Below are positions 21,501-60,666 of a DNA stretch of 64,000 nt, in pieces. A model generated the notes under the pieces. It was not told where the DNA came from and did no database searches. It worked only from the letters and a program-made list of their open reading frames with translations. The stretch spans positions 15,006,001 through 15,070,000 of the forward strand of contig NC_087250.1 in NCBI RefSeq assembly GCF_037042905.1, written 5' to 3'. This stretch comes from Lytechinus pictus (Eukaryota). A program made the translations under genes and the position numbers. Each line of letters opens with the position of its first letter. Position 1 is the stretch's first letter.

Positions 21501-24500
21501 AGACCACCTTTTTTGCCTCTGGGCGCACTTTTTAAGGGGATCTTGGTTATAATTTTGAGGGCTAATTTTCTACCTACCAAAGTCGATTCTATGAGAAGGA
21601 GACCTAAATTTATTTCTCTTCATGAGTACCACAGGGAGGTGTTTTGGGCCCTGTTTTGTTTTACATCGCAAGGGCCTCAAAAAGTTTCATTGCATATCGT
21701 TGGGTACAGTGAACCTCCACCACCGGTTATTTACAATTCCCTGGAAATCGTGGGTGTTGAATTTAAGGATATCATCTATTTGCAGATCATAAGCATGGTT
21801 CTTGTGGAGAGGTCACTTTCGAGTGTTTTCCGTTTTTCTTTTAATATTTAAAAAAAAAAAGCGAAAAACACAGACATTGCACACAGTAAAAACGCTGTTT
21901 AAAATTTATACAACGCTGCGTATTATATGAACCTTACAGTAGTTGTTTAAAAGTTTAAGCAACCATGCTTAACTTATTGAGAATCAAATATTAGAAATCA
22001 ATCTTTATTGTTTAAGACTTCAAACACTTCTATACTGTCACATAATAGCTCAGTCGGTAGAGTGAGGGTTTCGTATTCCGGTGACCCGGGTTCGATTCCC
22101 AAATGGTGCGCCAGTGCATGCCCTTTGGTAAGGCATTTAGAACCTCATTCCCATGCAGGTCCCTCGGAGAGGACATTATGCCGTCGGTCCTCTGGCTGCT
22201 TGCTTACAAACATTCATGCTTCCTGAGCAATCAGGTAAAACAAAAGTCACTACAAAAAGAATCACATTATAAACAGCGCTGTACTTCAAAAACTCCGGTG
22301 TTGATTTAGCACCAGTCCGGAATCTATTATGTCCACACCTGGGGCCCGTTGCAGAAAGAGTTGCAATCAATCGCAACTCTAAAAATCATGCGCCACTTGA
22401 TTTTCAACCAATCAACAACGCGCATTTGGGACTTGCGATTGATCTTTTGGCTTGCGTTTAAACGCAACTCTTTCTGCAACGGGCCCCAGAGAAGTGTTAA
22501 ACAACACCAGTTTCGTTTTGGTCTAACACCAGATAGGTGTTTATATACAACACCAATTAGTATTAAAACAGCATCGGTTTGATTCCAAACTGGTGTTGAT
22601 TCAATACTTCTCTGGTGCGTGTCGACATAATTTATAGATACCGGGCTGGTGTTAAATCAACACCGGAGTTTTTGCAGTGTGTATACAAATTTTAAGCAGC
22701 GTCTTTACTGTGTAAGGCAATATAAGACGTACCCTCAGTATATCAACAACACCGGAAATGAACTCCTTCACACCAACATCGTTCCTTGCTTTCTTCCTAT
22801 CTACTGTCTCGATCAGTATCTTGGGTAGAGCGACATAGGCCAGAGACATCACCGAACATCCGAGAGCGAGGCAGACTGGCGCTATGTACTTATGAAAAGA
22901 CTGATCCGGACTGTATTGCAAAGCGACCCCGAGGGATATCTGACCGACACCCATACCTGTGCGACGAATAATTAAAAAAACAAATGACGACAACACGGTG
23001 GGGATGATAATGTTATAAAATATTGTTGATGGAGATAATAGTATTACTAAAATAACGCGAACATTAATGAGAATAATAGCAACGATATAATAATTATGAC
23101 GATGATGATGATGATAATAATAGAACAATAATAATCAAAGCAATAAAAGGCCTAATGACAGGAATAATAATAATAATAATGAGAATAATAATCATAATAC
23201 TTTTAATAATGACGATGATGATAATAATAAAGATAAGAGTAATATAGTAAAACAAAAAGAGATAATCATGATGATAATAACTCTAATCGTAATGACAATA
23301 ATGATACTTACAATAATAATTACATTAGCCTTTATAAATAACGACAAATACATGTAATGATAACGATAATAAGAATTTATGAAAGTAAATAAGTTCGATT
23401 AATTCTACTTTTGAAATTACGGCGAATTTTTGTTTTTTGTTGCAATTAAATGATTCTTTAAAAGTTTTCAGGTTCTGTAACGTCAAAACATGTTATTTAA
23501 TTCTTGCTAATCATCTTGAAGAAGAATTTGAAAAAAAAATTATGAGCTCAAAATTTGACACTATGATGTGAAATTGCCCTACCAACAAAAAATATCGTTT
23601 CCAATGTGACGACTCGAGTAGTTCTGGATTTTACTGACGTCACATCCGCTATATAAGCCACACCCGTCGACAGAAGAAGGGCCTGTCCCCCGGTAGCGCC
23701 CGAAATAAAATCTCCTATGAGCAAATACTCCATCGGAGCTTGAAAGTAGACGATACCCAAGTAAACCACGGATAACAAGCAGTAACCGGTGATGTTCAGA
23801 CAGAAAGCCGGTTTGCGACCGAACCGATCGCTCAGAGATCCGACGAAAATAGCCATGAAGACACCTATAGGATGAATAGGAAAGAAGCCGTATACTCCTT
23901 TATTCACTTTATTGATATACCAACATTTCATTCTTAATGTAAAAATGTACTTTGTTGCATTAAAAACTATCAAAATGTCAAATTCATTACTTTAAGAATC
24001 ATTTGTGTAGTGAACAAAAGGAAATTATTTTCATTAAGAAATTGGATCAAGAAAACGTCTCGAATTAGCCTACATAGGTCTGCATTCGTTTTGCGTGTGA
24101 CAGCCCTTTAAAGGGAGGGGGGCGAACTGAATATAAACCTTTTGAGATTAAAAACGGAGAATATATTAGTTTGTAAGATTGTTTGTGTAGAGGAACTTAA
24201 GGACAACTCCACCCCAACAAAAATTTGGCTTGAATAAAAGGAGAAAAATCCACAACTCTGAGAATTTCATCAAAATCGGATGCAAAATAAGATTGTTGTG
24301 ACATTTTAAGGATTTGCTTAATTTCACAATGCGCATCCTGGTCAGTATGCAAATGAGGGGACTGATGACATCAATCACTCACTATTTCTTTTGTATTTCA
24401 TTATATAAAGTATGAAATATTTCAATTTCGAAGAAATGATTTATTCCTTCCTGATCATATACCATGCATGGTATTAAAATAATGTGGTTAAGTCAAGTCG

Positions 24501-35432: not shown

Positions 35433-38400
35433 TTAGTTTTCCTTTTCATCGCTGTCGTTGACAAGTTGCTTGTAAGAGTTCCTTTGACTCAACTGCAATA
35501 AGCTGTGTGGTTAAGGGGAGACAAAATAAATCACAGGTGAAAAAAATGCTTAACATTGTACAATATATCCGTAGTATTATGCCATATTATTCGTAAAATT
35601 ATTGGCCCGTATTCTGAAGTAAGGTTTAACTTAGACCACGGTCTAACTCTGTGCTAAAATTATGGAGAAGCCAAAAGTTCAATATTGTTCTATATTTCTT
35701 ATGTTGAGTATTTTGTTTCCTTTTACTTTCATAATGAAGGAAAATACTTCAGCTATCATTCCCCGACTTTTATTAACAATTTTGGTGCCATAAGAGTTAA
35801 TAATTTGAATGTGTACTATTAAGGATTTGTGCTCCAATTCGCTCTCCATAGTTAAACCACAACTTTAAACCAGAGTTTAATTTAAACCCGAGTTCAGAAT
35901 ACGGGCCATTGGGTTTACGATTTCAATATAGTCGGACTGGCATTAAACGTTTATTTCATCCCGATGTGTGATTGAATTGGAAGGGTAAACTAATGCCTTT
36001 CACGGAATGATGTCGAACTTGTATTTCATACGGCCGTTATGTCCACTCTGATTTGCATACCACTTTTCCCTATTCTTGATTTCTATTCTTTCGGCATTCA
36101 GTAATAATTGACCATTATTCTTAATTATTTTTTTACTGTTTGATCTTATTTTCTGTAATTAAAAAAATATCCAGTTGTGAAAACTTTCAATCAAGCCATG
36201 GACTAGCATTTTGCGAAACTTTCTCCTCAATTTTAAGTGGACGACTGGTTTTAGATAGGGTCCATGGATAGATCTTTCTTTGTGATTCGGATAGCTCTTG
36301 CATTCAGGCATCTCCTCGTTACTTTCGATTCATATCAAACTTATACTGTATCGAGTGAGTCCAATCATTTGCCAAAGGGGGGTTGGGAGATATTTTGATC
36401 CTCATTTCCCCCCGACTGGAAGCTGTGCAAAAAGCCGAGGTCGGGTGGATGGTCAGTCATAAATATTTAATTACGAGTACATTTTATCTATATTTTTTTT
36501 TTACCGGCAGGATATCATGTAGGGCAAGCGGATTTTCCCTTTTAAATAGAGACACATTTTTGTTTGTGTAATAAAATTCTGCACCCGCCTTCCCTTATTT
36601 AAATAACTTTTCTTCTTCTTTTTGTCATTTTCCTTTTTCTTTTTTTCTCCTCTCTTTTACCTTCACTCTTCTCTTTTTTTCTACCTGTCCCTGCTATCAA
36701 CCTTGTTGGCACCACGAATAGGGTGGATGTGTGTGTGTGTGTGTGTGTGTGGGGGGGGGGGGGGTGGGTGGCTGGATCCGCTCATGCTAACTATCATTTA
36801 GATAATAGAAATACTTGATCTATCCTTTGCACGCTGATGTTGCAATTGAGCACATTCGTACAATTAAATTCAACAATCGTAATAATTAGTTTTCTCCCCT
36901 AACTTCATATTAGAGAAGCTAATAAATGGCAAAAGCTCTCGGACAACATCTATACATGTATAATAATCATCAGTGTCAATCGTTCAAAATGGAAATCTGG
37001 AGTCATAGAAAATAAAATAATTCAGCGGGTAATCAAACTTACCCTGTTACAATGATCGGGATGATGTGCAGACCGCATAGGAAAAAGAAGACGAAGGGCG
37101 GATAGAAGTATAATGTACTGGAGTAGATGGAATTTGAAATAAGAGGTGATAGGAATCCCGCCAATCCATCCATACAGCCAATGAAAGCCAACATTAGTCC
37201 TTCATTTCGAGAAAAAAAATGAATATTAGAGACTTTTCGCAAGTATGCAACGGGGACAGGCTCAAGAACACAGCAAATGCTTCTAAAACACTCTTCAAAT
37301 GACATTAAATAGCTGGGAGGTCTTTGTCGAATATTGGTGAACCAGGGCACCATTTCATAGAGCTGTTTGTAAATTGGGAGCGACTTTAAGAACGACTGGT
37401 GATCCTTTCTTGTGGTAAATGGTATAATAATTTGGCGATGGTTTAGCGCGTAAGAAAGGATCACCAGTCGTTCTTAAAGTCGCTCCTAACTGACGAACAG
37501 CTTTATGAAACGGACCCCCGGAACAGCAATTTCGTCAAAGGTTTCGGAGCTGACGAAAAATGGTCTTTTGCAGTTTAAACAATGTGAATAATATTTCACA
37601 TAGTCCACTACGTGAACACTCTGTGTGACACTGTGTTCGTTCTAGCAGGGATATGTTGCTGTCAATATCTTACATTTTATTTTTCAAGGTCAAACTTAAA
37701 TGATGTCATTGTAAAGTTCCCCTTTAAAGCAAGAGTTACACCAAAACCGAATTCTCCTGAAAAAATTCGGACCGATTCTAGCCGAATTAGGCCTAATTCT
37801 GATGGTTTCGGTGGATTCGAATGTTCCCCAATCCTTCCTGAATTTTCTCGCATTCGCTGAGAACAGAATACTCCTGAAACCAACCGAATGCGTGGATTCG
37901 GAGCTGCTTCGGTTCCGGTGTAACCCGGTCTTAATCATTCAGTCACATCAACCAAGCCAAGTCCCGATCGATTGCAACTTTTTTCTAATGTCATATCACT
38001 AGTCGATCTTCAGTCGGTTTAACTAGCGGACTAGAAATCAAGTGCAAATTTGCCACGACGGTGATTTTTTAACCTGGTTTCTAAGAAAACATGAATGCTT
38101 GTAACAACCAGAGGACCGACGTCTTTAGGTCATCTCCGGACCTGGTAATGAGGATTAATGCCTTACCAAAGGGCACTAGAGCACCAAGTGGGAATTAATT
38201 GCTAAAATTATGACTGACTTTTGTTTAACCCAGACTTGACTTGCAATTGATTGCAAGTTTCTTGTGTACCTTTCTCATGTGCGGCAGACATCTTGGATAG
38301 TTGAGATCGTATCACTGGGAACGAAAGAGCCTTCACAAGACTGAGAGCAGAACCTTCAAATGCATAAAAATAAATATACGATATTAGATGATTATCTGAA

Positions 38401-41400
38401 AAAACACATGATGTAAATGCACTTTTATTACTATCAGTCGTGAAATACAGAAAAAATCTTACATGAATATAACTTTATTTCGGATTGTACTTTTTACGAA
38501 TTCACAAAAAGAGTCAAACGCCATTATTTCGAGTACAAGAAAAATATCGCAGCGTTGAAATTCCAGTCATCATCATTTCCATATTTATGAAGTAATAAAC
38601 GTTATATTATTTATGGGCGGAATACTGCATGATTATTTTGTTATCACTTATGTAAACTTCATTTTCACGAGACCCACACTCTAATACTCACTTAGATATA
38701 GCATCCATTTCGTTGTCGCCAAGCCTGTAATTAAACTGGTCAATATGGAATTCACCAAACATATCTGAAGTATCCAGTTATCGTTAAGGAATCGAGGTAG
38801 CACCGCACCACCAACAATCATTCCTGAAACGATAGTTATTGAAATGAAATATTACATTTGTCAACATGTACCGTACCATCCACAATCATTCCTGAAACAA
38901 TAGTATAATAATAATATAATAACAACGCAGTTCTTGTATAGCGCACATCACATTATGTCATAACGTCCCTATACGCTTCCAAAGGACTTGGATATTGTTA
39001 CCTTGGCTTTAGCTTCACGGTCTTTTACAGCGCGGTGGCATTTCAAGGAATTAATTACTGCCAGGTAACCAATCATCTTACCTTGGTTGAGTGCAGCACA
39101 GCGTGGATGAATTTCTTGTTGAAGGAAATTATACCATGGCTAGGGTTCGAACCTACGACCCTCTGCATATAAATCAGAAGAGTAATCCACTGGGCCACAA
39201 CGCTACAGAAGGTGCAACGCATTATCACACAATCAATGCTGAATGAATACAAAGTACTAGTATATACGGTATCTACAAGAATTATTTGAATACTAAATAC
39301 AGACAGTATATCCTCACGTAATTATTAACACTTGCAGGACATTTATAAACATACTACTAAATCCCCTTTAATACAACAAATTAGCAACATTAAAAAATCC
39401 TTTTATTGCTGTAATTTTCCATTAATAAGAGTCTTCATATCTTAATAAAAATGATAGACGTCGATGAGAGCTCCTGCATGACTTACCTATGGACCCAAAG
39501 TTGACGTTGATGACAGCTCATGCATGACTTACCTATGAACCCAGAGCTGACGTTGATGACAGCTCATGCATGACTTACCTATGGACCCAAAGTTGACGGT
39601 GATAACAGCTCATGCATGACTTACCTATGGACCCAAAGTTGACGTTGATGACAGCTCATGCATGACTTACCTATGAACCCAGAGCTGACGTTGATGACAG
39701 CTCATGCATGACTTACCTATGGACCCAGAGTTTACGTTGATGACAGCTCGTGCATGACTTACCAAAGGACTAAGAGTTTACGTTGATGACAGCTCGTGCA
39801 TGACTTACCAAAGGACTAAGAGTTGACGTTGATGACAGCTCATGCATGACTTACCTATGGACCCAGAGATGACATGTGTGACACTGACCAATGACACATC
39901 CGATGGTAGATAAAAAAGCTCAAATTTTCGACTTACTTATCACGCAGGAGCCAGTGGACATTATAGTTTCGATAAGCTGACAGACGTCGACAACTCTTGG
40001 AAGTAGTCCCTATGGACCCAAAGGTCACAGATGTGGTGCTAGTGAAGGACACATAAACAATTCGTATTTACCTATCACACAGGAGCTCCCGAGCAAGTTG
40101 TCATATTAGAATCAATAAGCTGACGGAGTTCGATTAACGCTCATGCATGACTTCTCCATATGGACCCAAAGCCCACAGATGTGATGCTGACGAAAGACGA
40201 ATCCAAAAGCCCTAAGCAGATGACCCAAAGGATCTATTTACTTATTGTGCAGGAGCTCCATTGACAACTAGTGGAAATTATAGTTTCAGTAAGCTGACCG
40301 ACATCGGCCACAGCTCTTCCGTGACCTCCCTACGGACCCAAAGACCACAGACGTAATGCTGACGAAAGGGCACATCCAAAGTACTAAGTACTGTGGTCAT
40401 TAGAGTCTCGATATACTGACAGACTTCGATGAAGTTCCTGCATGACTTACCTATGGATCCAGAGACAACGGATGTGACACTGACGAAGGACACTTCCAAA
40501 GGCCCTAGACAGAAGGGCTCACCCAAGCTGTAAACGACGAAAACCTGAGATGCTGATTGGACTACAAAAACGGCGAACATCATGATGACAGTATAGCCAA
40601 TCACTTTCATTCGCCGTTTATCTGTATTTTCCTGCATGAGAAGAAAATAACTGATATCACAGAAGGGTAGACAGAAATAATCGTCTTTTCAATCAAGGGA
40701 TATGTTAACAGTCTATTACTACTATTACTATTATTACTACTATTCCCATCACAGAGGTACGTGGGGCCAACGAAGTTCAGCGGTACAACATAATGTACAA
40801 AGACTATATATTTTGGTCAGACACAAGGTCTAAGTGAGTAACGATAATACTTCAAATTGAAAAGGATGTCTGAAAACCGCCAGACACGCGTTGAGCCTCT
40901 GAAATATTTGCTCCCCCTTTAACCTGATTGGAAGGCAAGGGGGGGGGGGGGAGGTTATGGGATGCATTTCATTAATGTAATCAGTACACTATGTTATTAA
41001 CTTTCAAACAGGCTGTAGATTTACAGAACACTTTTTTATATTCTAGGTCCGTCTAAGTTCTTCAAAAATGAACTAAAGAATACTTCATTCCCATCGTGTT
41101 TCGCATAATCTCACCTTCAATAAGTGATAGATTCCGACTAGGACCTTTGTTACTTGTGAACCGGCCTTATCAGCCTTCTTCCTATCAACAGTCTCGATGA
41201 TCAACCATGGGGAAAGAACATACACCAGTGATGCAAGGGTACACCCTAAAGCTATCCACAGCGGGGGAAGATACTTATTGAGCGTCGGGTCCTGACTCTC
41301 CTGCAGAGTAAACCCAAGCGCTATTTGTCCGATCCCGAACCCAACAAACAGCATGGTCTCTACGATGACAATACGCATCGTTCTCGTTTTCGCTGAGGAC

Positions 41401-42735
41401 AAGTCGGACACGTAGGCTGCACTCGTTGAGAGGAGCAGCGAAAGCCCTCCGCCGAGACCGCCGATGAGATCCCCGGCGATGAAGGCCGGGATGGGGAGGT
41501 GGAAGTAGATGACGAGGATATTGCCAGCGGTGTTTAAGAGGTAACCGAAAAGGCACAATCCCAGGGCCGGTTTACGGCCGAGCCGGTCGCTGATGGATCC
41601 GAGGATTATAGCCATGAACAGACCTGAAATGGAACAATCAGTCAAGACCACGGTGAAAAGAATCATAGAAACAAGATCGAGGAGAGGGAACGGATGATTT
41701 AAAACCTTCACAATATCAATACACTCATGGAGAGCATTAAACATTTGTCGTAAGTCATGTCAGATCTTACAACTTTCCTAGACATTGATTGACTGAAGAG
41801 CACGGTTCATTTGGTAACCAACTGCCAGTAAAATACTTTGTCGAATAAAACATATCGCTCGATCTATTTAAGTTAGTCAAACTCGATCTGGCTCTCATTA
41901 CACAACGCTTCTGACAATGCTGTCCTTTCACATAATGACCAATGTAATCATGGGTACATAAATTGCCCTTCCAATGGCTAACCTTTTCTTTTGTCACAAG
42001 ACAAAGGTCTATAAGTTCGTTTTGTATCCAACTAGCTCATCTTCTTACTATTTCGTCTTTTCAACGTGACGTGTAGCTATTTCACCCAATTACCAGAACT
42101 GCTTGCCACGTTCTCTGGCTCGTTTTACTTTAGATTGGACGAATCAGACCAACTTATTAGACCAAGAGATAATTAGCCCAAGTGAGCATCAGACCTTTTG
42201 TGAATATTGAGACCGATTCACACAAAAAAACTTGACCAACGCGGGTTAGCCCGAAAGCATAATGACCCATAGATTGATTACACCAAAGAATTTGAAACCA
42301 GGCTTCAATAATCCATCTTCACTTACCTGGAATTGCGTTTATTGCACCAAGAATAAGAAGCCACTGGGCAGTTGTAGCTTGGATGCCATCTTCAACACTC
42401 GAAGAATTTCCACCACATGTTTTATTGTGCGTCGATGTGTTGTAGTGGTAGACATCCCTTGCTATCCGCTCCCTGAGGTATTCCGACCGCAACGTGCTGA
42501 GAATACTTATGCTCAAAGTCACTAGAAGAAGTGGCAGTTCGACCGTTAGGTACCTAGAGCGCGCCCTCTCGAGATTGACCTGAAAGGCTTTCTCAGGATG
42601 CAATGATGGGTTGGGTACTGGGATATAACTCGCGTTGATGCTTGGGGTTTTCGTAGGGTTGCCAGAATTAGTACTGAAGTCATCCTCGTTGACACTGCGC
42701 CCTCTCACCAACTCGTCATACGCACTGTCTTCCAT
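35433..42735 (-). CDS. SLC46A1-like: SLC46-family MFS transporter, paralog B, 7 coding exons, 513 aa
   Basis: Exons on the minus strand: 42735-42327, 41623-41115, 40631-40451, 38823-38692, 38353-38270, 37199-37043, 35502-35433. Introns are GT-AG with consistent phases, giving 1542 nt. Motifs: GSISDRLGRK, AYVSDLSSAKTRTMR, PVIRSQLSKM. Internal exons of 181/132/84/157 nt match paralog A in length. Confidence 0.9.
35604..35907. mobile_element. MITE of the GGCCCGTATTCTGAA TIR family; other copies at about 31882-32140 and 60-171
   Basis: GGCCCGTATTCTGAA...TTCAGAATACGGGCC termini. Confidence 0.8.
37343..37520. mobile_element. Hairpin MITE
   Basis: TTTCATAGAGCTG...AGCGACTTTAAGAACGACTGGTGATCCTTTCTT and its inverted copy. 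Confidence 0.75.
38905..39145 (-). mobile_element. tRNA-derived SINE (same family), minus strand
   Basis: Reverse complement of the A/B boxes (ccactgggccacaacgct, gggttcgaacc) and of the body. Confidence 0.7.
39471..39870. repeat. 46-bp minisatellite (9 units) derived from the exon3/intron3 donor junction of SLC46 paralog B
   Basis: ACTTACC recurs at 39481, 39527, 39573, 39619, 39665, 39711, 39757, 39803 and 39849. The unit matches catgacttacctatgga at the true donor (40441-40457). Confidence 0.92.
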
Positions 42736-43911
42736 TGTGTGCGCCTCTTCTGCAATGTAAATTCAGTAAAGTTTATAAGTAGGTTGTTTGAATTTAATAG
42801 CATTGTTGATTCACATCCGGTTCGGCCGGAAGGTCAAACGGTCTAGGCCTCGTAACACAAAGGTTAGCGATAAATCGCTAAATGAAATGGCCTATCAAGA
42901 TCATATACCATGATCCATATACCATATTTCTCAGTACACTGACTAGGAGCCAATCAAAATCGTTCTTTCAAATTAGCGATTGATCGCTATTCTTTGTGTA
43001 ACGGGGCCCTGGATTTCGCGAACTATCATGTTGAATTTGAGCATTTCAATAGTGGAACACATCTTCCCATTGTGCAATATGTAAACACACTGGGAATTTC
43101 ACACTGTGTGATACAACGTTCTTTTCAGCGAGTTTATATACCGCCCTTTTACACGGAAAAAAAAATCGTAATTTGAATGATGATTCCAATGAAAAATAAG
43201 GCTAATGAGGAATTTTAGCACGTGTGAAACCAAATTAGAATGACGAACGCTAATGACAATCACGAATTCAAATCCTACTCAGCATGCACAGGGGTGAATT
43301 CCAGCTAGGGTCCACTCAAATTAAGGTACGAATTTACCGTGTGAAAGATCCGTTGATTCTAAAGACGAATTACAATCATCATCACAATGATGATTCAAGA
43401 TTCACGTGTGAAAAGGCCCATAGTGCAAGCCTTGTAGAATATTTCCTGAGTTGTTTTGTCAATCGAGGAACAGCAGGCCTATATTCTATCATACAATTGA
43501 CTTGGTAATAATGGAAACATGTGGAACCGATTTTTTGAAATGTGTTTGAGCAATGTGCCTGAAAATGTCATATCCGATGCATGACGGTGTGTGTCAGGGT
43601 GTGTGTTGGGGGTGGGGTGGGTGTGTATGTGTGCGCGCGGGGGGGGGGGGCAGCTCACATATCACATATCGCATGTTAGTGAGTATATCTCTGAAGTAGT
43701 AAATATTAAATCTTTAAAGGATCGTAAATTCTTTAACAGGTTTTCGTCAATTCAAAGCTCTAAATAGCATAAGAAAAAAAAAAACCAATAATATTGATGG
43801 CTTTGATTTTTTTGTCACGTTTCAAATTTATCTTTAATGTTTGCAATACTTTTTGGGCTATTGAATTTTAATTTCGGGCAACCAAAACAAAAATAAAATA
43901 TGATGATTTTT

Positions 43912-44213: not shown

Positions 44214-47200
44214 CCTACAAGAAATAGTGTGAAGCCTTGCTGTAAGTCTATGTTGACATTTCCAGATTACCAACGACCGTGAAGCCTGGCCTTATAAAAA
44301 AAATCAGCAATGAACATAGATAAACATATGAAAAATAGCCCCAGTGGCCCCCAAAAATTGTGGAACTATTCAAGGGTGCTTTTTAAATCACAAAAATGAA
44401 AATAGCCCTCGATAAATTTTTGGCCTGCATTAGTTCCAACCTCGATGACAACCCAAGAACTCCTAAATCTATTTATTACCATTCAAAATTAGCCTTTGGT
44501 ATGGCACGTTCTTTCTATGACGAGAATATATTCTGTCACGTGGAACGACAATTTTTAACTCATTATAGTGATCACACACATCATTTATAATGCAAATACA
44601 TTAGAATATATTCTTTTCACTTGATGTATATGCAATAAATGTTTTGACAGATTTATTGCCAGTATATCACGTTTCATTTTTTCATGCATAACCTTATTGA
44701 TAAGAGTTTAACCTTTTGTTTACATCCCTGACCTACGTTTCTGACACCCCTAAGGGCCCGCGAAAATGGGGGGGGGGGGGCTTCAGTCTATCCACTTTTT
44801 CCCCCCAAACCGTGTACAAAACGTAAAAATGACTTCTGATTGTGAATTTTTCATGGTCAGCCCCCAATTTCAAAACCGTTCCCATTCCCCTTCACCTTTT
44901 TGTTTTACAATTAAAAATAAAAATAAAAAAGTTATTCAAATTCAAATTCAATTTTTTTTTATTTCACTTCCATCAAACAAAAACACATTGTATACCATAT
45001 ATAAACATAAATATTTGTATCCGTTGCAATCCGTTATTGAATTGAATTGCACGGTTCGTGTAGGATTTTGATATATATTATTTCTATTACAAATAGAATT
45101 GAATTTGAACTTGAATATGGGATCAGATATGGATTCAAAATCACCATGCGAACTGGGCAAAAATTTTGATGCACATATCACTTTTAACAAAACAAATAGG
45201 TAATAATAATCACAAGACATTTTCTATATTTTTTGCCAGCGCGTTTTATGTTGAGAAATAATGTAGCAACGTAACATTCAAATCGAACTTTTAACACTAG
45301 TTTGTTCTAAATGTAAAGTTGTTTCCCCGCATTGACAAGAACGTCACAAAAAAAAAACAATTAATCACGAGTTAATTCTATAAAAGTTTATGAAGCTTAT
45401 ACGCACTTCACATCATGAATCATGTGACACATCGAGTGCGCATATAGTCCGAACTTTGGTTTATAATACATCATATGCACCGGTTATCATTAGGTTAAAA
45501 GCCAAGGTCAGTAGGCCCTACGTTGGAGGCGGTTCTGATGACCTGACTCATATTGTTTACGAGATATTGGCTAGCTTGGGCCCGAAAGAGGTGTATGGGG
45601 ATATTTTGTTGGCGGTGGCACGTTGGTGGTTGGGGGTATTAAGGCCCTCGCAAAAAAGGGCGATTCTTTCTTTAACCATTTTTGGTTTAACTACTTTTTA
45701 TTAGATTCTCTTATACTAGTAGTCTGTTTTGTTTGTGATTTTATCAATGTCTTTTTATGATGAAGGGCATAAATGCGTTTTATTAGCCAATCAACTTTTG
45801 TATTGATTGTGTTTTATACCGTTCACTCTGTTAGTTTAGTAATGGTAAGATTTATTGAGGAGGACCTCGATTGGGATTAGTTATTTAGTCAATCTTTTTT
45901 CCTTTCCCTCCATTTGCGTGAAAATCTCGTTCCTATTGCTTTTTATTCTTGGTTGATGATGCCGGATGAAATGTTTGAATTCACCAGCTTTCGTCAAAGA
46001 CTTCTTCGTATGCTTCTATGCTGTAGTCTGCTGGGCAAACCGTTCACTCGAGTAAAGGGTCTGAATTGCAGCCTACTCATGCCTTGTGTACTGAAGGCCC
46101 TGAAACAGCAAGATTTGTATGTGCTAGTCTTTGCGTGGAGACACACTTGTTGATCAAAGTTTCAATCAGGGTCTGTGCCTGCAGACTACTTCATATGCAT
46201 TTGACAATACATGTTCTAAGGTTTTTCTTTTTTAATCCGTCATGCATCATGAAAGCAAAAATCCCTAACAAAACAGTCTGAGGACACGGATTCAAACGTG
46301 TATAAATCGGAGATTTTACTCTGTGGACCATTGACATCGCAGCTTTCATTTAACTCAAATACGATATGAACGCGGAATACACAAGAACATTATTATATAT
46401 CAAACTGGCAATTGTCATTCTGTGTAATGGGGAAATCAAAACATATTTATAACATTCTGAAATGATGATTTTTATCAGAAGTTCATAGCTAATTATAAGT
46501 CAAGCGCCAAAAAAAAATGATACTGGTATACTGCGGATAGCTTTATTAACGTGAATGACATTAAGGTAAATATTTTGAATTTAAAATATGAGTATAATAA
46601 ATTTGCGTCACAAATCAGTGACAGCCGCTTCTGCAATTACGTTTAATCACCCAATACACAGTTAAAACGCTGTTTAAAAGATTAATGTTATACAACACTC
46701 TTTACTATAATAACCATACAGTGGTTGTTTAACCAGTTCAAACAAGTGTTTAAAATCTTAAACAGCAGAGTTTATTGTTTAATTCTCAATAGATTAAGCA
46801 TGGTTATTTAAACTGTGAAGAACTACTGTACGTTTCATATAGTAAACATCGTTGTATAAAGCTTTACACGGCGTTTTTCTTGGCCTGTCGCATATTGTTC
46901 ACGATATATACCCTACGGGTCCACAAGCCCTAAAGCGTTTTGATGAGATCAACAGAGCAACTCTGACACAGCAGAACGCTAACACGAAAATACAATGTCA
47001 AGCCCGAATACTACTCAGACTGATTCTGTTTTTGATCGCCTGTATAGGCCTTGTATGTTCCACAAGCTTTACACAATCACAAACATTTTAATACTTACAT
47101 AATTTAAATACTCAGTAGCCTCCCTGTGCGTAAATCACTCCATTCTTGTCTTAATGCATGAAATTTACAATGGAATACATATATAGATTTCAATGTATGC

Positions 47201-48524
47201 ATTGAGAAACTTATGTCAATACTGAACTTAGCGGGCATGAAATAAAGGGGCCAACTTTGTTTGAACATTGTTGACTAGTCTGTGATATCAGACTGCATTG
47301 TTGAGATGCATTTCTTTATACACAGTAAAAACGCTGTTTAAGATTTTATACAACGCTGTCTACTATATGAACCTTACAGTATTTGTTTAACCGTTTAAAC
47401 ATTCATGTTTAATTTATTGAAGATTAGATATTGAAAATTATACTTTGTTGCTTAAGATTTAAACACTTGTTTAAACTTTAAACAATTACTGTAAGGTTCA
47501 TATAGTAAACAGCTTTGTATATTTTTTTTTACTGTGTAACCGATATGATGTTATTGAAGGGAGAAGTTTATTCAATCAATAAACAAATATGAATTGATGC
47601 ATGGTCTCATTCCGCCAAGAGTAGGCGCCATTATACCGGTAATGACATTTTCAATTTATCATAACAATGTGAAATTTGCTTAAACTGTGACAATTCAGTA
47701 CATATTCTAGTTGAAGGCAATAATGAAAAAAAAAACGGATATAGTTTGCAAGTGTGAAAGAAGAGTCTTAGGGTCAAGTTAAAAGGTCAGTTCAAGAGTA
47801 GATATTCATCATATCTATTTTCCAAAATATTTCATGCCTTTAAGTTATTCTAGTTAATGATAAAAATATGATAAATTTACATAACGCAGCCACGTTACTT
47901 TCCTGTACTTAAAAAAAAAAAAACTCGCATTGCTTACACCACACATTAAAAAATATATTCAATACTTTTAAATACATTCAGATTGGGGCGTGTATTCATT
48001 GTCATTTTGTTCCTTACATGTCTTTCATGAATTTTATTCTAAAAAGCAATTCAAAACGATAAATCTCTCAATCTTTTAACTCAATAAATACTGTTTTAGT
48101 AAAGATTCAGTTTCACCACAATTTCAAGTTTTCTCCTTTGTTTAGATTGACTAATATGATTAATTTATTTAAATATAATAAAGACTACCATCAATACAAT
48201 ACCCTTCCCACTCTAAATTCCATTATCCTGTAGCATTCAATCAGTCAACCCTTTATCTATTTAAATCCACTGGTCCTCGAATATGGAATTCCCTCCCTTC
48301 CACTGTAATTTCTAGCACAAATGTTACTGCTATGCATTTAAAAAAACCCTCAAAAGTTCACTTGTAATTATGTATGCCAATTAATCACATAATTCATATC
48401 CATACCCTTTTCCTGACCCCCTCCCCCTCTCCCGTATAAGTTTATCGTCTTATTTCTTATGTATTGTTTGTGTTTATTATTGTTGCCTTTTTACTTGTAT
48501 GTACGTTTATATATATATATATAT

Positions 48525-48606
<82 letters not shown>

Positions 48607-48684
48607 CGATATTACGTTCCGCGTGTTGGACATAGAAGATATTAATGAGGCAAAGTGGTAATGCATTGTACTTAGTTCCAACAG

Positions 48685-48744
48685 TTTATTTTGAATTCCA
48701 AATTTTCGACGTTAAACATACGTCTTCCTCAGGGATACAATAAA
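48685..48744 (-). ncRNA. Identical hammerhead ribozyme motif in the opposite arm of the inverted repeat
   Basis: Exact reverse complement of 48954-49013. Confidence 0.65.
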
Positions 48745-48953
48745 GCTCACAGAGACAAGAACTGAAATAATAACATTCATGATTGTGGTAGTCATGGAAC
48801 CGCGCACAAAACAGCATCACCATCATAATAATAAAAAAAATTAAAAAAAAGCATGCTTTTTTATTATTATTATGATGGTGATGCTGTTTTGTGCGCGGTT
48901 CCATGACTACCACAATCATGAATGTTATTATTTCAGTTCTTGTCTCTGTGAGC

Positions 48954-49013
48954 TTTATTGTATCCCTGAGGAAGACGTATGTTTAACGTCGAAAATTTGG
49001 AATTCAAAATAAA
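48954..49013 (+). ncRNA. Minimal type I hammerhead ribozyme motif (Penelope-like element type)
   Basis: TCC-CTGAGGA-A-GACGT(ATGTTTA)ACGTC-GAAA-AT-TT-GGA. This gives the CUGAnGA core at 48966-48972, a 5-bp stem II, GAAA at 48991-48994, a palindromic AAATTT stem III and stem I TCC/GGA. AATAAA follows. Confidence 0.65.
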
Positions 49014-49051
49014 CTGTTGGAACTAAGTACAATGCATTACCACTTTGCCTC

Positions 49052-49111
<60 letters not shown>

Positions 49112-50476
49112 TGGCAGAAGCGGATCTAGAGGGGGGGTTGGGGGGGTTGCAACCCCCCAAAAAAAAATATCCGGGGACCATTTTTTTTAATCTTATCTTT
49201 TTTAGATGCAAGAAAACGCCATTTTCACACACAGATTTTCAAAAATTTTCCCTACTGTGGGAGGGGGGACACCCCCTCCCACACCCTCCCCCCTCGCTCG
49301 CTCCGCTCGCTTGGACTCGGTCGCTACGCTCCCTCGCATACCACCCCAACCCCCCCTTTATAAAAAGCTGGATCCGCCCCTGATTGGGTGTACCACTCAT
49401 CAAGCTTTTGCTTTTAGGGGCACCCTATAATCATTTAAACTATACTGTACATTCATGTATGATTTTGTATATATTTTGGTTTGTATATTGATTTTTCAAA
49501 TGATTGAATAAAATGAATGAAAAAAAAACCTGTGTGTTTCTTCTTTTACTTCTTCTTCGTCTTATCTTCTATTTCTTATTCTTCTTTTTTCTTCTCCCTC
49601 TTCTTCTGTTATTTTCCTCTCCTTCTCCTCCTTTTTCTTCTTCTTCTCCTCCTCCCCCTCTTTCTTCTTCTTCCTCCTCCTCTTTCAATCACCGTTCTGC
49701 CTCATCCGGTGGCGGATCTGGGGGGGGGGGAACAGCCCCTCTTTTTGAGAGCCATGATAACAATTTGTAATGTAACTCGTTTTTACGCAAGTGTCCCCCC
49801 TCGAAAAAGAGGAATTTTTTTTGCTTGTCTAATTTTCCACGGACAAAATGACCTTCAATACGTCCAGGCGCGGATCCAGGGGGGGGGGGGGGGGGGAGGG
49901 GGCACAGGGGGCACAGGGGGCACGTGCCCCTTTTTGAGAAGCAAAATTGATATTTGTAATGTAAAAATGCCATTAAAACCAAGGTGTGCCCCCTCAAGTG
50001 TTGACTTTTATAAAGGTTTGGGGTGACTATGAGGTTCTCTGTAAATATTTTGTTCGACTTTGCTTTGTTCCTTACAGGAATGGCGTTTTGTTTGGACATC
50101 TTTTAACCTCTATACCTATCATATCCTATGTACTGAGTCTGTATTACTCAATGTACATTTTGTGCATGTGCAGAGTTTCTATTGCTCTCTGCTCTGCTCT
50201 CCACTTGTACATTTACTTGTACAATACCAGTCACACATCTTTGATGCCTGTTTGCCTGGCTCAGCCAGGGAACGGTGAATTACATGTATCTAGTGTTCTC
50301 TTTTTTGAGGCAGGTGGGCAGTGTCGGGGATGTGTGGCTGGCGGTGTTATTTAATTGCACCTGGCAAGACTTTATTAAGCTTTTTTATTCTGCCAAACTA
50401 GTCTTAAGCATTAAAGATATCTAATATAACTTTTTTGTGTATTTTTTTTTAAATAATATATAAGTGTAATTTTTGT

Positions 50477-53400
50477 ATGTATAATCTTGAGAGCCAATAT
50501 CTCAATAATATTACAAGATTAAATAGTTTTTTATCACCTGATGTTGATACCGAAGATGCTACTTTTAACTTATCTAATAATGTTTTTTCTATTTCTAAAT
50601 TTAGAACCAAATTGATGGATTGTGTGTCAAATAATAATTGTATAAATGATAAACACTTTTCATGTTTACATATAAACTGTCAAAGTCTTTCTAAAGAACC
50701 ATGATAATTTTTTTTTAATTCTTAAGCTGTTTAGATATCAACCCTACAATTATCGGCCTAACAGAGACGTGGATTTCCGAATCCACACCAAATGCAATAT
50801 TTAATATCGATGACTATAAATACGTTGGTTTAGAACGTAAGAATAAAAGAGGTGGAGGAGTTGGTTTTTACATTCGTAATAATGTTGAATACACCCATGT
50901 AACAGAGTTTGATATTAATGAATGCCACGTAGAAGGTATATTTCTGGAATTGAAACTTTGTAATAATTCTATATATGTCGCATCTATTTACAGACCACCT
51001 GGTCAGCCCATTGGTTTATTTGTTAATTCATTATGTGCAATACTGGATAAAATGAATATATCTTGTAAAAAACTGTATTTACTAGGGGATTATAATATCG
51101 ACTTGTTAAAAGTGAATAGGAATTATGAGGTTAATATTTTTTAGACACTTTGATATCTTATTCCCTGAACACTTTAATTCGTTATCCAACCAGAGTCACT
51201 GATCACTCTGCGACTCTGTTGGATAACATCTTCACCATTGACGAAAGTGTTTTTTTGTCAGGTGCATTGTTTTCAGACATAAGTGATCACTTTCTTGTTT
51301 TTTGTTTAAGTATAACACCATTCTTAATTGTAATAAATATAATAATATATCTGGGAAGCGGTGTAACATCTCAGATCAAAACATTGCTAAATTTATTCTT
51401 GAATTAAATAAAGTTGTTTGGAATGCTGATCATGAAGATCCTAATAAGTCTTATGATAAGTTTTTATACAAATTTTTACATGCACACAATGTATGCTTTC
51501 CATATTCCTCTTTTTCCATAACCAATAAGAATAGGAGCTATAAGCCATGGATGACAAAAGAAATACAAAAGTTAACTAAAACAAAATGTAAGATGTATAA
51601 GAAATTTATTAAGAATCCATCTGAATATAGGAAATGTGTTTATAAGAAATCAAGAAATAAACTCACAAATTTAATTAAAAAAAACAAAAAAAGAATATTA
51701 TCGATTACAGTTCCAAAATGCCTCTGGTGATATGAAACAAACATGGAAAGTGATTAATAAAACACTTGGTCGTTCTCATAAGAATACTGGTCTTGATAAA
51801 ATTACATACCAGGATCAGGTCTTAACAGATAATAGAGTGATATGTAATACAATAAACAAACACTTTATTAACATTGGTCCGAAGATACATTCTGAATTTA
51901 GATCTAATATAAATACTCAATCTGATTTATTAAAGTATATTACTAAAAACGACAAATCTTTATTTTTGTCCCCAATAACTCCTAAAGAAATATTGGAATT
52001 GTAACTGGTTTTAAAAATAATGTCAGTGCTGATTTTGATGGTATTGATGTCAAGGTTGTAAAGAAGTCAATACATGTAATTGCTAAATTATTATGTGATA
52101 TATTCAATTCTTCTTTTGTTACTGGGATTTTCCCAGACCAGCTTAAGATTGCAAGAGTGGTCCCTGTTTTTAAATCTGGTTCTCCTGACATCATTTAAAA
52201 TTATCGTCCAATTTCCGTTCTATCCATTTTTTTCAAAAATATTAGAAAGATGTATTTATTCTCGTTTACATAGTTTCATTTCTCAGTGCAATATTCTTAA
52301 CAATAATCAGTTTGGTTTTAGAAAGGGGCACTCCACATCTTCGGCCTTAGCAGAAGTTGTATATAAAGTCACAAGTGCATTAGATAAACATGAAACAATG
52401 ATTGGTCTTTTTATTGATTTAAGCAAAGCTTTTGACTCACTTGATCATGATTTATCATTACGTAAATTAAGTTATTATGGAATTAGGGGGATTGCACTCA
52501 GTTTATTTGACAATTATTTTCAAAATCGTAAACAGTTTGTTTCGATTGACAATTTTTCTTCCTCGATGCAAGGTATAAGATGTGGAGTGCCTCAAGGGTC
52601 GATCCTCGGCCCACTTCTGTTTAGAATTTACATCAACGATTTAAGTAATGTCTCCAAAATTGTGGACTCTATTTTATATGCAGATGACACCAGCTTGTTC
52701 AGGTCCCATAAAAATGTACAAACTTTACAAAATATTTTCAATAGGGAACTGAAATATGTATCAAACTGGCTTACTGTTAATAAATTAACCTTAAATGTTA
52801 AGAAATCAAATTTTTTGTTTTTTACAAATGAAAATAGATCACAATTCAAATTTGAGGTCTGTTTATATGAGATGCCAGTTAATGAAGTAACATTTACTAC
52901 CTTTCTAGGTGTTAATGTTGATAATAAGTTAACTTGGAATGAACATGCTGGTGTCGCCTGCAACAAAGTTGCCAACATCTTTGGTGTTATGTATAAACCT
53001 CACACATTGCCGAAGAATATTCTTTTATTGTATAATACCTTGATTTTACCATATTTGAATTATTGCAATATAGCCTGGGGTAATACCTTCCAAACACATA
53101 TTAACAGAATATTTCTTTTGCAGAAAAAAACCATTAGAATTATAACTCACTCTTCTTATCTCTCCCATTCTGGACCATTGTTTACATCTTTGAAAATTTT
53201 GAATATAATGGATTTAAATAGAATGAATATTGCACTTTTCATGTTTTTCTATAAAAAGGATCTCTTGCCTAATTCCCTTAAGAATTATTTTGTATTAAAC
53301 ACATCTGTACATACTTATTCAACAAGAAATGCCCAAAATATCCATATTCCACAGTGCAGTACTTCCATCTTCAAAAACAGTATATTTTATCAAGGACCAG

Positions 53401-53779
53401 TTATTTGGAACTCAATCCCTTCTGACATTCAATCAAGCCCTTCGGTATCTGATTTTAAAAGGAAATACAAAACATTTTTATTGTCTAAGTCTTAGATTTA
53501 TTTTTGGTTCTCCCCCCCCCATTCTCATTCGGTTAAGGTTTAGTTAGGTGTTTGTTTGTTTGTTATGTTTTTTCTCATTGAATTTGTGATTATATGATGT
53601 TTTTAATATTTCTTACAAGTACAATTTTTGTTATGGGTTGGCCTCACACAAGGTTTCTTCCTTTTTGGCCATTACCTTCCTCACTTTCTTTAAATTTGAT
53701 GTACATTGTATTTACATTGTCTATTTTTTAAATGTATTTTTATCTTGATCTCTTGAGGAGAAATAGATGAAACTTGAAA
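50477..53779 (+). mobile_element. Decayed non-LTR retrotransposon (CR1/L2-group, Crack-like) ORF2: APE endonuclease plus reverse transcriptase
   Basis: Endonuclease motifs LHINCQSL, IGLTETW, RGGGVGFYI, IYRPP, LGDYNIDLL, PTRVT..TLLDNIF, SDH. RT motifs QFGFRKG, FIDLSKAFD, GVPQGSILGPLLF, YADDT. Several frameshifts and stops. T-rich 3' UTR ending tgaaacttgaaa. Confidence 0.92.
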
Positions 53780-54825: not shown

Positions 54826-55000
54826 CGACATTAAGTAATAAAGGAGATGGGAAACCAGTTACAGTAATAACACTTTTACTAACCCAACTTAGGGGCAAAC
54901 CTCATTTACAGTGCGCGGCCATCGTAAGGGCCGATAAGACATCATCCCTCGCAGAGGGCGACATTTCACAATACACATCAAACATAATAACATATTGGCG
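54826..55000 (-). repeat. 3' LTR
   Basis: 175-bp direct repeat of 59459-59633, preceded on the minus strand by a polypurine tract. Confidence 0.88.
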
Positions 55001-55383
55001 CAACCACTTTTCTCTATCTTTCCATTTGAATTAAGTCAACCTCAAACCAAATGGCTTGGGGGACAATTACTTTCTAAACAACAAAATCAATTCACTCTTT
55101 AAAAAGGTAAACAAAGGTATATCTGTAGTTATCTCGTCAAACCATGGATTCCGGAAAACATACCGGTAGACCTGCAAGGAAGGTATCACATATTAATCAA
55201 AGTAAGTTAACAGATCAGTATCAATACGAAGTATTGGCCATTACCATGGTTACTACATAAAACTAATTAAAAGGCATAATGTACCTTTAACCATTATACA
55301 ACATGTACAACAAGCGTGAATAGATAAGTAACCAAGATCTTATCTAGTATCTACCCTTCTATCTGTAGGCAAAACACACAAGA

Positions 55384-55422
<39 letters not shown>

Positions 55423-56942
55423 CCAACATCTCATCTACCCTTCAATCTGTAGGCAAAACACACACCAAAATTTAATAGTCAATCAACATGACCTAATGTA
55501 TATCAAGCCAACCAAAGAGGGGAAACAACTCTAATAGCCATAAAACATGTATGCTAAAAAAGCTAAAAACCTGTAAAACAGTCAAATTCATGTAGCAACA
55601 TCAATATTGTCAACACACACTATACAACTAACAGTTAAAGCATGACTAAGGATAAAAGCTAAAAAAGGCATTACTAAATAAAATACATCCATAAACACGA
55701 TCACCGTGGACACTGCATATGCTATAAAACTAAACGGGCATAGCAATATGCAATACATTCATAAGTACAATCATTGTGGACACTTTTGATGCAAATACTG
55801 AAAAATGTAAAATGCAACTTACATTTTTGTTGAGTTTCATGCGAAATATAAATGCAAATGAATAACATCACTACCTTGCATACTGAAGACAAACAATCCT
55901 ATCATAGTAAGCACATAAACAATCCAATGATACATTTTCCAACTGTAAGAACATGTAAGGATATGGAGGCCCACAAGTCCTGCTAAGCAAAATACAGTCT
56001 TTGCACAAAAGTAGTAATAGCAAACACTAAACAAAATGTAAAACAAATAGGCAAAGGGTCACATAAAGCAAATAAAAACTGGGATAGGTAAAGTAGAAAA
56101 ACATAAACGTGTACAAATTGTTCCAGCAGTAAAAAAAATAGGTGTAGGTACAATGGGCACTATCCAGCCACCACAGCTCAGCTATGAAATGCGCAATGTC
56201 TAAAGGCAAACCAACAAAACATGACAAACTAAAAGCAAATTACTGGACTACCATAAACTATGGAAAGTAAAAAATGTATTCATGAAGTGCCAAAAGATTA
56301 CTAACCTAAAATAGCTGATAAAAAAGGGCATTCAGGCTCACACTATACATCCTGATAATAATATCTCAACATTTAATAAAAATCAGTATGACATGAATAC
56401 ATGTAATTTAAAAACGAAAAGTAATTATAAATATCGGATTACCAACTCGTCACTAAAATGGAAATTACCAAAATAAACATGTAATCAATAACTTTTAGTC
56501 ATAAAAAATTTATATGTACAAGGAAACAATCTGACATCTAACTGTATGGTACCCAATATAACCAAAGGGATACAATTTATTTAGCAATATCAAAACAATG
56601 ATAATATGGTCCATTGGTACATTATATATACAAATATCAGTAAAGGCTGAAAATATACTGAATCAAAAATATGCACAAATCACATCACAAAAAAAGGCAA
56701 AAAGAAAAGAGACAAAAGCATAACAGGAAAAAAAGAAAACAAAGAAGACTGGAGTATATACTGTCCATATCAGTATGATGAGTATAAGAATACCAGTTCA
56801 TATGCTGTCATGAATGAGTCCTCTGTATCGAAGTCCCTAGATATGTGTCACTCAAAGAATGCGATGGAACATTAAAACAAAGTCCTTGCCCATCAACATC
56901 CCCGAAAGGGTCTCTTGAAGAAGGGTCATATCAGACGGCAAT

Positions 56943-59308
56943 CTAGTAAGGGGTCCTGCGAGATTTAAAGTCAATATCTGGAGGACGACCTGGGGGGAGT
57001 CCAATGTGTTCTCCAACAGGGTGACATGGCCGACTCTGTGAAGTCATCATGAGGGCAAAAGTGAAGGGCACAACGGTGTCTGGCCACCTGAACTGAGGAT
57101 CCAACATCTTGCAGCGCCAGGGATCACTGGTAGGACCTGAAGCATCACCGGGGATATCACCAGGAGAATCCGGGGGTCGACCAGGAGGGTCATTGGTACG
57201 TAGGATACAAGGATGAGGATCCATATGATGATGCTCGGCGACGGTGATGTTGTGCATGAGAGCACAAGAACCCTTGACCACAGGAGTTGAAAGAGGAAGG
57301 GTATTTAGGTGGCACCAACTGTCATCATACAATGTAGGATCCAATGACCGACTACGATCTGGTTGAGATACAGAAACATCAGATGAGTCATGGACTGCAC
57401 AGTTTATACGGTATAAAGAGTCATGATCAGGATCCGATGGCTGTTGAGGTATCATAAGCTCACTGGTGGGCTCCACGGCTATAGGATGTCGGTCTGAGAC
57501 AACAACAGGTTCGATGTCTCTAACGACTTCACTTGTAGATGACTGGTCTGCAACAGCAGGATGGGCTCGTTCACAATCACAGGAGTCCGGAGTTGAAACA
57601 AGGTAAGATTGGTCAACGCCATCGGACGTAGAGTCAGGTAAGCCAGCAGCAAGCGCATCGGATAGAGGGATGGCCGAAGGACCGTACAGATACGATGGTC
57701 CATCACCGAATGATACTGCGCGCTTAGCCGGGCGGATAAACACGTCATGCAATTCCATGAATGGAATTCCAGCCTGTACAGCAACATCCAAAGACTCTAC
57801 CACTAATCCTTTGAAGAGAAACTGTCTGTTGTCCCTTGTGAATGTGAGACAGGTATCACCTACAATCGCAAGAGGGGAGGAATTGTCAGTAGGTTGAACT
57901 GATAGGGAAGTGGCGGTTATCTCGGCCCCAAGGTCTTAGACCACAGAACGTTGAATCAAATTCTCCGCAGAACCACAGACAATGCTCACACGGACACACC
58001 GATCACCATGGAACAGTTCCACGAAGGGAGTCACGGGGGCCTGATTAGGCACAACGAATGAACTAGCCACAGACCTATGTGGCGTACTGTGAAGACCTTG
58101 GACCTCATCTGACTCTGATGATTGTCCATTGCACCAGTGAGGGTCTCCCTGAATTGCTGACTCTGACTTCGAGTCATCAAAGTAACCAAGATGTAAACTA
58201 GGATCTATGGAGGAACGATCCACGGCATACGATGAACAGTCAACATAATCAGTAGGAATACAGCCTGGAACATGATCACAACCAGGGTCATGATCGACAA
58301 TCAACTCATCGCAGGTATCACTACAAGTCTGGAAATTGGTGTAGCCGAGAATGCTAGCGGCCTTGCGAGCTCGAGTAATCATGCGCCTTTCATGGTCAGG
58401 CAAGAATGGACAGTCACCAATATGGTGGCGGTAACCATGCCGACTAGCATTAAGACAAAGTGGGCACACAACTTGGTTTGCGTTAGGCCTATGATGAACT
58501 AAGGCGGGCCTAGGACTAGTCTGAATCGATGAAGGTGTAATATGCTATAACTATTGGTATCCTGGATATGTTCAGGACTCGACATATACTGATAGTAAGG
58601 TACATCACACTTGTGGTTATCATATACGTCATAATAGGCAGATCTATCATACATCTCTTTACTAGACCTACTACCGATATCATCTCTCGATTCATGATCA
58701 TCGTACACGGCTTGATGATTGTTAAGCTTATGGCTTAAGTGTGCGTGTAAAACTCTAATCTGATTCTGAGGATATGATTGGCTATGTAGATCTAGGCATG
58801 ACTTTTGTCTGGAATCATCCAACTTATAAGTAACTTGATCACAATGAAAACTGTCATAATCTTCTGGTTCACTCTCATCAACATAATCATCTTCCGGGTC
58901 ATTCTCATGATCATCTTCTGATTCATTCTCAACCTCATAGACATAATCATCTTCCGATTCTGGTTCATTCTCATCACCATAATCATCTTCTGGTTCTTTC
59001 TCCACTTCATAATCATCGTCTGGTTTATTCTCATTCACACAATTACGACCATTAGGACTGGCCCTGTCACCGACAAGTTCAACATCATCCACACGATGAA
59101 ATCTACTAATTTTACTATGTCTAACTCTAATTTCTTGATTTACTGTGTAATTTCTTGATTTACTGATTGTGTAATTACTTGATTTACTAATTGCATGACT
59201 AGAAATGTTTTGAATCTCTGACAGAAAAGTACAAGAACCAACTTGACTGGGGCGACCTCGCTCTCGGGCCTGAGGGCGAGGTCTTGACCTCGGTGAGGGA
59301 ACAGCCAT
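56943..59308 (-). pseudogene. Disrupted gag-protease ORF of the LTR element
   Basis: ORF 59308-58499 (acidic EPEDDY repeats) is frameshifted relative to 58469-57936 (zinc knuckle and start of protease). After one stop at 57936 the same frame continues to 56943 (rest of protease, PPGRPPD twice). Confidence 0.7.
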
Positions 59309-59435
59309 TCAAAGGACTGTATGTGGGACTACGGCACTGAGGTAGTAAAAAATTGTTACACCTATCACGACACATTTTTGCCGACCAACTGGTTGCTCGG
59401 ATAGCATGAATCCCATCGATGAGCGGAGCAGGCAA

Positions 59436-59458
59436 GGTTCAAATCCCAGCTGTCACCA
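59436..59458 (-). promoter_or_regulatory. Primer binding site complementary to a tRNA 3' end (Leu-like, tentative)
   Basis: The plus strand reads GGTTCAAATCCCAGCTGTCACCA, which is a T-arm, an acceptor strand and CCA. Confidence 0.75.
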
Positions 59459-59633
59459 CGACATTAAGTAATAAAGGAGATGGGAAACCAGTTACAGTAA
59501 TAACACTTTTACTAACCCAACTTAGGGGCAAACCTCATTTACAGTGCGCGGCTATCGTAAGGGCCGATAAGACATCATCCCTCGCAGAGGGCGACATTTC
59601 ACAATACACATCAAACATAATAACATACTGGCG
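59459..59633 (-). repeat. 5' LTR
   Basis: 175-bp direct repeat of 54826-55000, adjacent to the PBS. Confidence 0.88.
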
Positions 59634-60608: not shown

Positions 60609-60666
60609 GTGAATGTGAGAGTGAGAGAGATATAACGCGTTATATCTCTCTCACTCTCACATTCAC
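60609..60666. repeat. 58-bp perfect loopless palindrome
   Basis: GTGAATGTGAGAGTGAGAGAGATATAACG|CGTTATATCTCTCTCACTCTCACATTCAC. Confidence 0.95.

Follow-up and report, generated by a model that had tools for sequence, protein, structure and literature searches.

The 454-base insert described here lies in a 64-kb window (the whole 64,000-nt stretch of Lytechinus pictus DNA that was analysed). It very probably arose from one recent event in which an endonuclease-type Penelope-like element (PLE), or a member of a non-autonomous family that PLEs mobilise, inserted into a (TA)n microsatellite with severe 5' truncation (Table 1). The insert consists of two inverted pseudo-LTR (pLTR) copies joined head to head. 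It encodes nothing: with no reverse transcriptase (RT), no endonuclease and no tandem copy, it was dead on arrival. Its hammerhead type, opposite-strand pair, tail and microsatellite target have all been published already, and the insert is real but ordinary. Its value is that of a clean and very young specimen of PLE head-to-head ends, and its unmutated junction with a central palindrome could separate models of head-to-head formation once copies of the family have been collected.

The two arms were compared for complementarity and presented 0 mismatches over 196 nt. A second repeat comparison extended them to 202 nt when one mismatch was allowed. Each arm ends in ATAT, 4 nt that could equally be counted as part of the TA tract. 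The identity of the arms indicates that the insertion is recent. An earlier note, made from the sequence of this DNA, had described a recent unit formed by a perfect 196-bp inverted repeat with a 29-nt centre, about 33 extra nucleotides on its left and flanking (TA)n, and our comparisons reproduced all of these features, the 33 nt being found on the left side only. The same note had called the 29 nt a spacer. Its length was correct, but the spacer is not featureless, as a perfect 18-bp palindrome sits inside it (48845-48862). Outward from this palindrome the two sides are nearly symmetric, except that A/T runs are longer on the left. We found no further copy of the arm inside the 64-kb window.

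Table 1. Features of the insert and its flanks (positions in the window)
Feature	Position	Strand	Remark
Left (TA)n tract, about 49 units	48508..48605	.	putative insertion target
One-sided 33-nt tail, 3' end of left copy	48606..48638	-	PLE signature
20 open codons, from ATG (48666) to the tail end	48607..48666	-	weak candidate for the 5' end of the parent ORF
Left arm: 5'-truncated pLTR copy running on into the tail	48639..48834	-	
Left-copy minimal type I hammerhead motif	48697..48735	-	C3, 48732; predicted cleavage 3' of U17 (48700)
Head-to-head junction, 29 nt, with 18-bp palindrome	48835..48863	.	
Right arm: inverted pLTR copy without tail	48864..49059	+	
Right-copy minimal type I hammerhead motif	48963..49001	+	C3, 48966; predicted cleavage 3' of U17 (48998)
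Right (TA)n tract, about 28 units	49056..49111	.	putative insertion target

Both outward-pointing hammerhead motifs announced by the earlier note were located, one per arm, each followed by AATAAA. On the sense strand, the 5' part of the motif comprises a U-rich flank, a 3-bp stem I, CUGAGGA, an extra A and a 5-bp stem II opened by G-C, and the 3' part comprises GAAA, A-U, U, U, stem I and an AU-rich flank. This corresponds to the core CUGANGA(H)-stem II-GAAA-N/N-U-H closed by stem I, and each arm is a pLTR with a minimal type I hammerhead, as in PLE insertions. A descriptor of minimal hammerheads, which was composed after the motif had been seen, yielded 2 matches in the 64-kb window, only at these two motifs, and it matched 0 of 200 dinucleotide shuffles. 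The two matches amount to a single independent one, given the identity of the arms. The Rfam profiles returned 33 matches at E up to 5 for positions 46000-52000, with no hammerhead family among them. The Rfam matches to miRNA and sRNA families were discarded, as they scored under the gathering scores and only mirror the hairpin structure.

Every position of the motif fits the consensus given under Fig. S3 for the minimal hammerheads (min-HHRs) of metazoan PLEs (Cervera and De la Pena 2014, PMC4209133), which agrees with the PLE-type minimal type I hammerhead proposed from sequence alone. The window motif and the min-HHRs have in common the extra base after A9, G10.1-C11.1, the palindromic 15.2/16.2, a 5-bp stem II, an AAUU stem III, a 3-bp stem I and U-rich and AU-rich flanks. 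The PLE-linked row of Crassostrea gigas ends in A-U-U-U, as the window motif does, and the sequence of the window family was absent from those rows of the Fig. S3 supplement that were compared. The same paper describes dual min-HHRs lying 100-700 bp apart on opposite strands, which are probably truncated PLEs. The spacing in the window (234 bp) falls inside this range, and the opposite-strand dual layout is already in print and hence not new. We also rejected U17 as a novelty, since U is frequent at this position in the published alignment, including in the identical A-U-U-U ending (PMC4209133). Hammerheads with A, C or U at H17 are cleavable (PMC3138052, PMC3884650). The cleavage position of 16 metagenome motifs (see below) is C in 14 and A in 2, whereas the window motif has U.

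In the predicted fold of a single arm, stem II presented pair probabilities of 0.77-0.88 and stem I of 0.2-0.3. When the whole unit was folded, on either strand, the predicted probability of stem II dropped to about 1e-18 because the arms pair with each other. Predicted energies were about -353 kcal/mol for the read-through RNA and about -244 kcal/mol for a single DNA strand. These predictions favor the idea, raised in the earlier note, that a long read-through hairpin would compete with the ribozyme fold. Moreover, the motifs lie on opposite strands, so that no transcript contains both in sense and a mutual dimer is impossible. Published single min-HHR motifs do not cleave and dimers do so weakly (PMC4209133). 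Given the opposite strands and the modelled 196-bp duplex of the read-through RNA, both hammerheads, passengers of the pLTR, are most likely without activity at this locus. It is vanishingly unlikely that the host uses the insert as a source of dsRNA or endo-siRNA, or as a cruciform regulating the SLC46-like gene located 5.8 kb away. The strong folding energies predicted for RNA and DNA would suit such a role, and PLE copies yield small RNAs in a rotifer (PMC3846280). However, the identical arms mark a very young insertion, the arms have no similarity to the SLC46-like gene and none of the 12 RNA reads recovered from a public run (X23, see below) is assignable to the locus. The sequence and these 12 reads gave no evidence of dsRNA production, of a cruciform or of an effect on the SLC46-like gene.

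Parts of the insert sequence are present in other public data: an index search identified 20 sequencing runs from three organisms and 8 studies. The indexed runs listed as containing it included no RNA run, which carries no information on expression. Four runs (X1, X5, X10 and X23) were aligned to positions 48606-48863 at 85% likeness, with 48808-48863 skipped as repeat. This yielded 18 contigs for X1, 102 for X10, 1 for X5 and 12 RNA reads for X23, the reads coming from about 6 in 100 of that run. The tail belongs to the family, being found in contigs of X1 and X10 and in reads of X23. At least three X10 contigs end at 48639 and then enter unlike flanks, and the right arm of the insert stops at the same boundary. 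The family thus presents an optional tail (33 nt, within the 30-40 bp expected) together with tail-less ends at a fixed boundary (48639). Among the loose ends listed, a tail-less end at 48647 and a 5' end at 48703 enter TA-like sequence in X1, and more 5' ends lie at 48684, 48740 and 48749. At least two opposite-strand joints were found elsewhere in X10 (48673/48747 and 48682/48770), and the alignment depth drops from thousands near the hammerhead toward the centre. The loose ends and TA-like flanks point to a dispersed family with variable 5' truncation and AT-rich or microsatellite targets, contig depth giving no copy number.

The variable 5' ends, the other joints and the tail-less ends suggest one recent truncated insertion rather than a hairpin that moves as a fixed unit or a tandemly arranged retrozyme. 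Alternatively, the entire palindrome could move independently, as a fold-back retrozyme or a long-TIR MITE whose copies include this junction. The identical arms and the TA flanks would allow this, the run alignment having covered only sequence outside the junction zone. We consider such a unit highly unlikely. The ends of the insert are asymmetric with a tail on one side, the family has other 5' ends and at least two other joints, its depth declining toward the centre, and retrozymes are defined as head-to-tail tandems, whereas the window holds two inverted copies. Nor does a one-sided tail, with ends and joints that vary across family copies, correspond to a MITE or fold-back element. The claim that the palindrome is a retrozyme-type unit was therefore not retained. 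An assembly or library fold-back artefact would also produce arms without mismatch, and no independent read was obtained over the junction, whose zone (48808-48863) was skipped in the alignment. This explanation is nevertheless barely credible: the symmetry ends at the family boundary with unlike unique sequence beyond it on both sides, A/T runs are not equally long in the two halves of the centre and opposite-strand joints of the family occur in an independent run of another organism.

In the hammerhead core of the family copies, the commonest variant falls at the free position N7 (235/333 of the depth in X1 and 1356/1971 in X10), and no variant was listed at C3, U4, A6, G8, A9, G10.1, C11.1, A13-A15.1, U16.1 and U17. 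Minor core variants affect G5 (1 contig), G12 (3 contigs), 15.2 (2 contigs) and two stem II bases in X10. Matching depths further suggest that stem II gains a sixth pair (G.U), missing in the window copy, in three X1 contigs. The variation thus lies mainly at N7 and at the edge of loop II, and among the family contigs none of the five core pairs of stem II showed a compensatory double change. The 12 RNA reads of X23 form no pile of ends and are too few to judge self-cleavage; 2 of them match at 99% or more, and three quarters continue into unlike sequence.

The layout of the insert is that published for PLE insertions. These elements are often truncated at the 5' end and accompanied by a neighbouring truncated copy in inverted orientation, have a tail of 30-40 bp at one end and favor microsatellites (Craig et al. 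2021, PMC8557442), a description also given in PMC8969392. Inverted pLTRs, a 31-bp tail and palindromes at the inverted junction have been reported as well (Arkhipova et al. 2013, PMC3846280), and the 193-bp pLTR of Adineta Pen2 carries an 18-bp palindrome at its 5' end (PMC8557442, PMC3846280). The insert has in common with such endonuclease-containing (EN+) PLE insertions an inverted, 5'-truncated adjacent copy placed head to head, a one-sided tail, a junction palindrome and a microsatellite target (PMC8557442, PMC3846280). It differs from them by the absence of an ORF between the copies and of a readable target-site duplication, both flanks being (TA)n. The inverted pseudo-LTR ends suggested by the earlier note are thus a published signature of PLE insertion (PMC8557442, PMC4209133, PMC3846280). 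Naiad and Chlamys PLEs share the (TA)n targeting, the inverted structure and the tail, but Naiads are described in PMC8557442 as devoid of canonical hammerheads, in contrast to the window family, which has one. Non-LTR retrozymes of animals are similarly non-coding, with a type I hammerhead and an origin from PLE pLTRs. However, they form head-to-tail tandem arrays (Li, Clavereau and Pollet 2026, bioRxiv 10.64898/2026.07.22.740005), whereas the window locus is head-to-head and two cuts cannot give a unit-length RNA.

The origin of the inverted structures of PLEs has been called unresolved (PMC8557442), and self-priming on an antisense template has been proposed for the inverted copies (PMC3846280). 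For the window insert, we propose that a PLE GIY-YIG endonuclease cut within the (TA)n tract may have primed cDNA synthesis. A first cDNA starting at an outer RT site would have produced the left copy with its tail, and the inverted copy would have ended at an inner RT site, yielding the right copy without tail. Synthesis of both copies would have ended some 100-120 nt 5' of the hammerhead, and the copies would have met at the 18-bp palindrome in head-to-head orientation, through self-priming of a folded-back strand or through the pairing of two cDNA ends. In vitro, the Poseidon element PAc of Anolis carolinensis cuts and extends both strands of AT-rich DNA and uses two internal RT start sites, the interval between them being the tail (Frangieh et al. 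2024, PMC11167929). Two such starts account for ends with and without tail, and the AT-rich targets resemble those found here. The PAc hammerhead cleaves only with the protein, and insertion needs no cleavage (PMC11167929). PAc differs from the window family in having a protein, as the latter is known from non-coding ends only, and the PAc paper leaves inverted copies aside, the word 'inverted' appearing there only for a blocking dT.

It is also conceivable, although rather unlikely, that two cDNAs, one per RT start, were primed on either side of a double-strand cut and paired by their 3' ends via the 18-bp palindrome encoded by the element. Under such two-ended priming, the run-length differences of the centre would represent independent RT slippage and not the fold-back of one strand. 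A search of the open literature on the inverted ends of PLEs (subscription papers lie outside this scope) yielded only PMC3846280, which does not mention twin priming. If two-ended priming is true, the many young joints of the family could separate it from antisense self-priming (PMC3846280). Another possibility is that a solo PLE end was inserted first and was duplicated in inverted orientation later, by local replication or repair primed at the palindrome. Identical arms and a central palindrome suit such a template switch. The second copy, however, halts at the family boundary 48639, which is unexpected for a random event, and inverted pairs recur in unrelated families and are the published rule for PLEs (PMC8557442), leaving a later duplication only a very slight probability.

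The insert was also used to look for a parent element. The comparison of four PLE-like pieces with the 64-kb window (tblastn) gave a best E of 0.6 and no PLE ORF, an absence that is expected of a truncated copy. The RT nearest to the insert is of another kind: a broken LINE remnant (50719-53495, + strand), with Pfam Exo_endo_phos and RVT_1 domains and L1 ORF2p as its closest solved relative, lies 1.7 kb away. This contradicts the earlier statement that no RT is nearby, but the remnant, an APE-type LINE, is no PLE and was rejected as the parent. In known PLEs, the ORF start lies in the pLTR end and tail (PMC11167929, PMC3846280). An open frame of 20 codons, like the one that runs from the ATG at 48666 to the tail end of the left copy, is common by chance too, and a protein search with 48 residues around the putative ORF start returned no candidate, which is weak evidence. 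DNA patterns specific to the family had 0 matches in bacterial and archaeal genomes. Matches to viral contigs, 1 per pattern, were rejected as chance; one (L015) contains the 20-nt pattern only and the other (L016) lacks U16.1. The parent of the family may be a non-autonomous element.

We further scanned metagenome contigs with a pattern of the core and stem II and identified 14 loci, 6 of which present outward inverted pairs (L001, L002, L005, L008, L011 and L013). These loci have only about 32 nt of the hammerhead in common with the window (6 of the 14 at E < 1e-3) and represent about two families from a small number of other hosts, which suggests that they are analogues and not relatives. 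The pair of L013 flanks decayed ORF pieces, one of which is GIY-YIG-like (Atlas 0.95 by features, TM 0.69) and matches GIY-YIG clusters of the Atlas that also carry HTH_animal and RVT_1. This piece recurs in L005 and L002 (tblastn). A second Atlas query with a metagenome piece returned no match, and Pfam gave nothing significant on four metagenome ORF pieces, the GIY-YIG match of L011 having an E of 0.075. An RT-like piece was recognised by eye alone. Locus L005 presents a one-sided extension of about 40 nt that is common to L002 and L006. Stem II covariation was left uncounted among these loci, as the search pattern fixes those bases. At the unfixed positions of the 16 metagenome motifs, which belong to about two families, 15.2 and 16.2 pair in all 16 (11 Watson-Crick and 5 G.U) and U16.1 is present in 14. 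As far as these contigs indicate, the outward-pair architecture recurs with the hammerhead and with more or less ORF between the arms, and the window copy appears to be its fully truncated case. A near head-to-head pair, the second copy of which is missing half its hammerhead, lies at L008:300-560.

The first coding exon of the SLC46-like gene (- strand, about 42319-42762) lies about 5.8 kb to the left of the insert, close to the 6 kb of the earlier note, and its exon at 41088-41759 matches the proton-coupled folate transporter (E 3.6e-15). The insert may serve as a polymorphic marker near this transporter gene. Two sets of MFS-transporter exons on the - strand (22652-23991 and 37039-42762) are consistent with two SLC46-like paralogues, of which only the second was compared. 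In an intron of the SLC46-like gene, a 46-bp unit is repeated 9 times in tandem with 91% matches (39457-39873). A C2H2 zinc-finger gene with an open frame of 736 codons is located at 4831-7041 (- strand).

Several other repeats were observed in the window. Direct repeats of 175 bp, 98.9% identical and about 4.5 kb apart, lie at 54826-55000 and 59459-59633, each followed by TGGCG. Between them lie broken - strand frames (56943-59308) that encode a Cys/His cluster as well as an acidic repeat, for which Pfam found nothing significant. This repeat pair (54826-59633) is possibly a young LTR-type or split-direct-repeat retroelement. An 816-bp element (20324-21139), about 79% self-complementary and with CAGTG...CACTG ends between TA dinucleotides, is by appearance a Tc1/mariner-like MITE. 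A family of short palindromic MITE-like sequences occurs at 15916-16147, 21881-22029, 46654-46878 and 47318-47535, two of them within 2 kb to the left of the insert, and a perfect 58-bp palindrome with no loop is found at 60609-60666. Finally, a G-rich MITE-like repeat with GGCGGATC-type ends (49113-49380) adjoins the right TA tract, and similar ends are present at 49705 and 49863.
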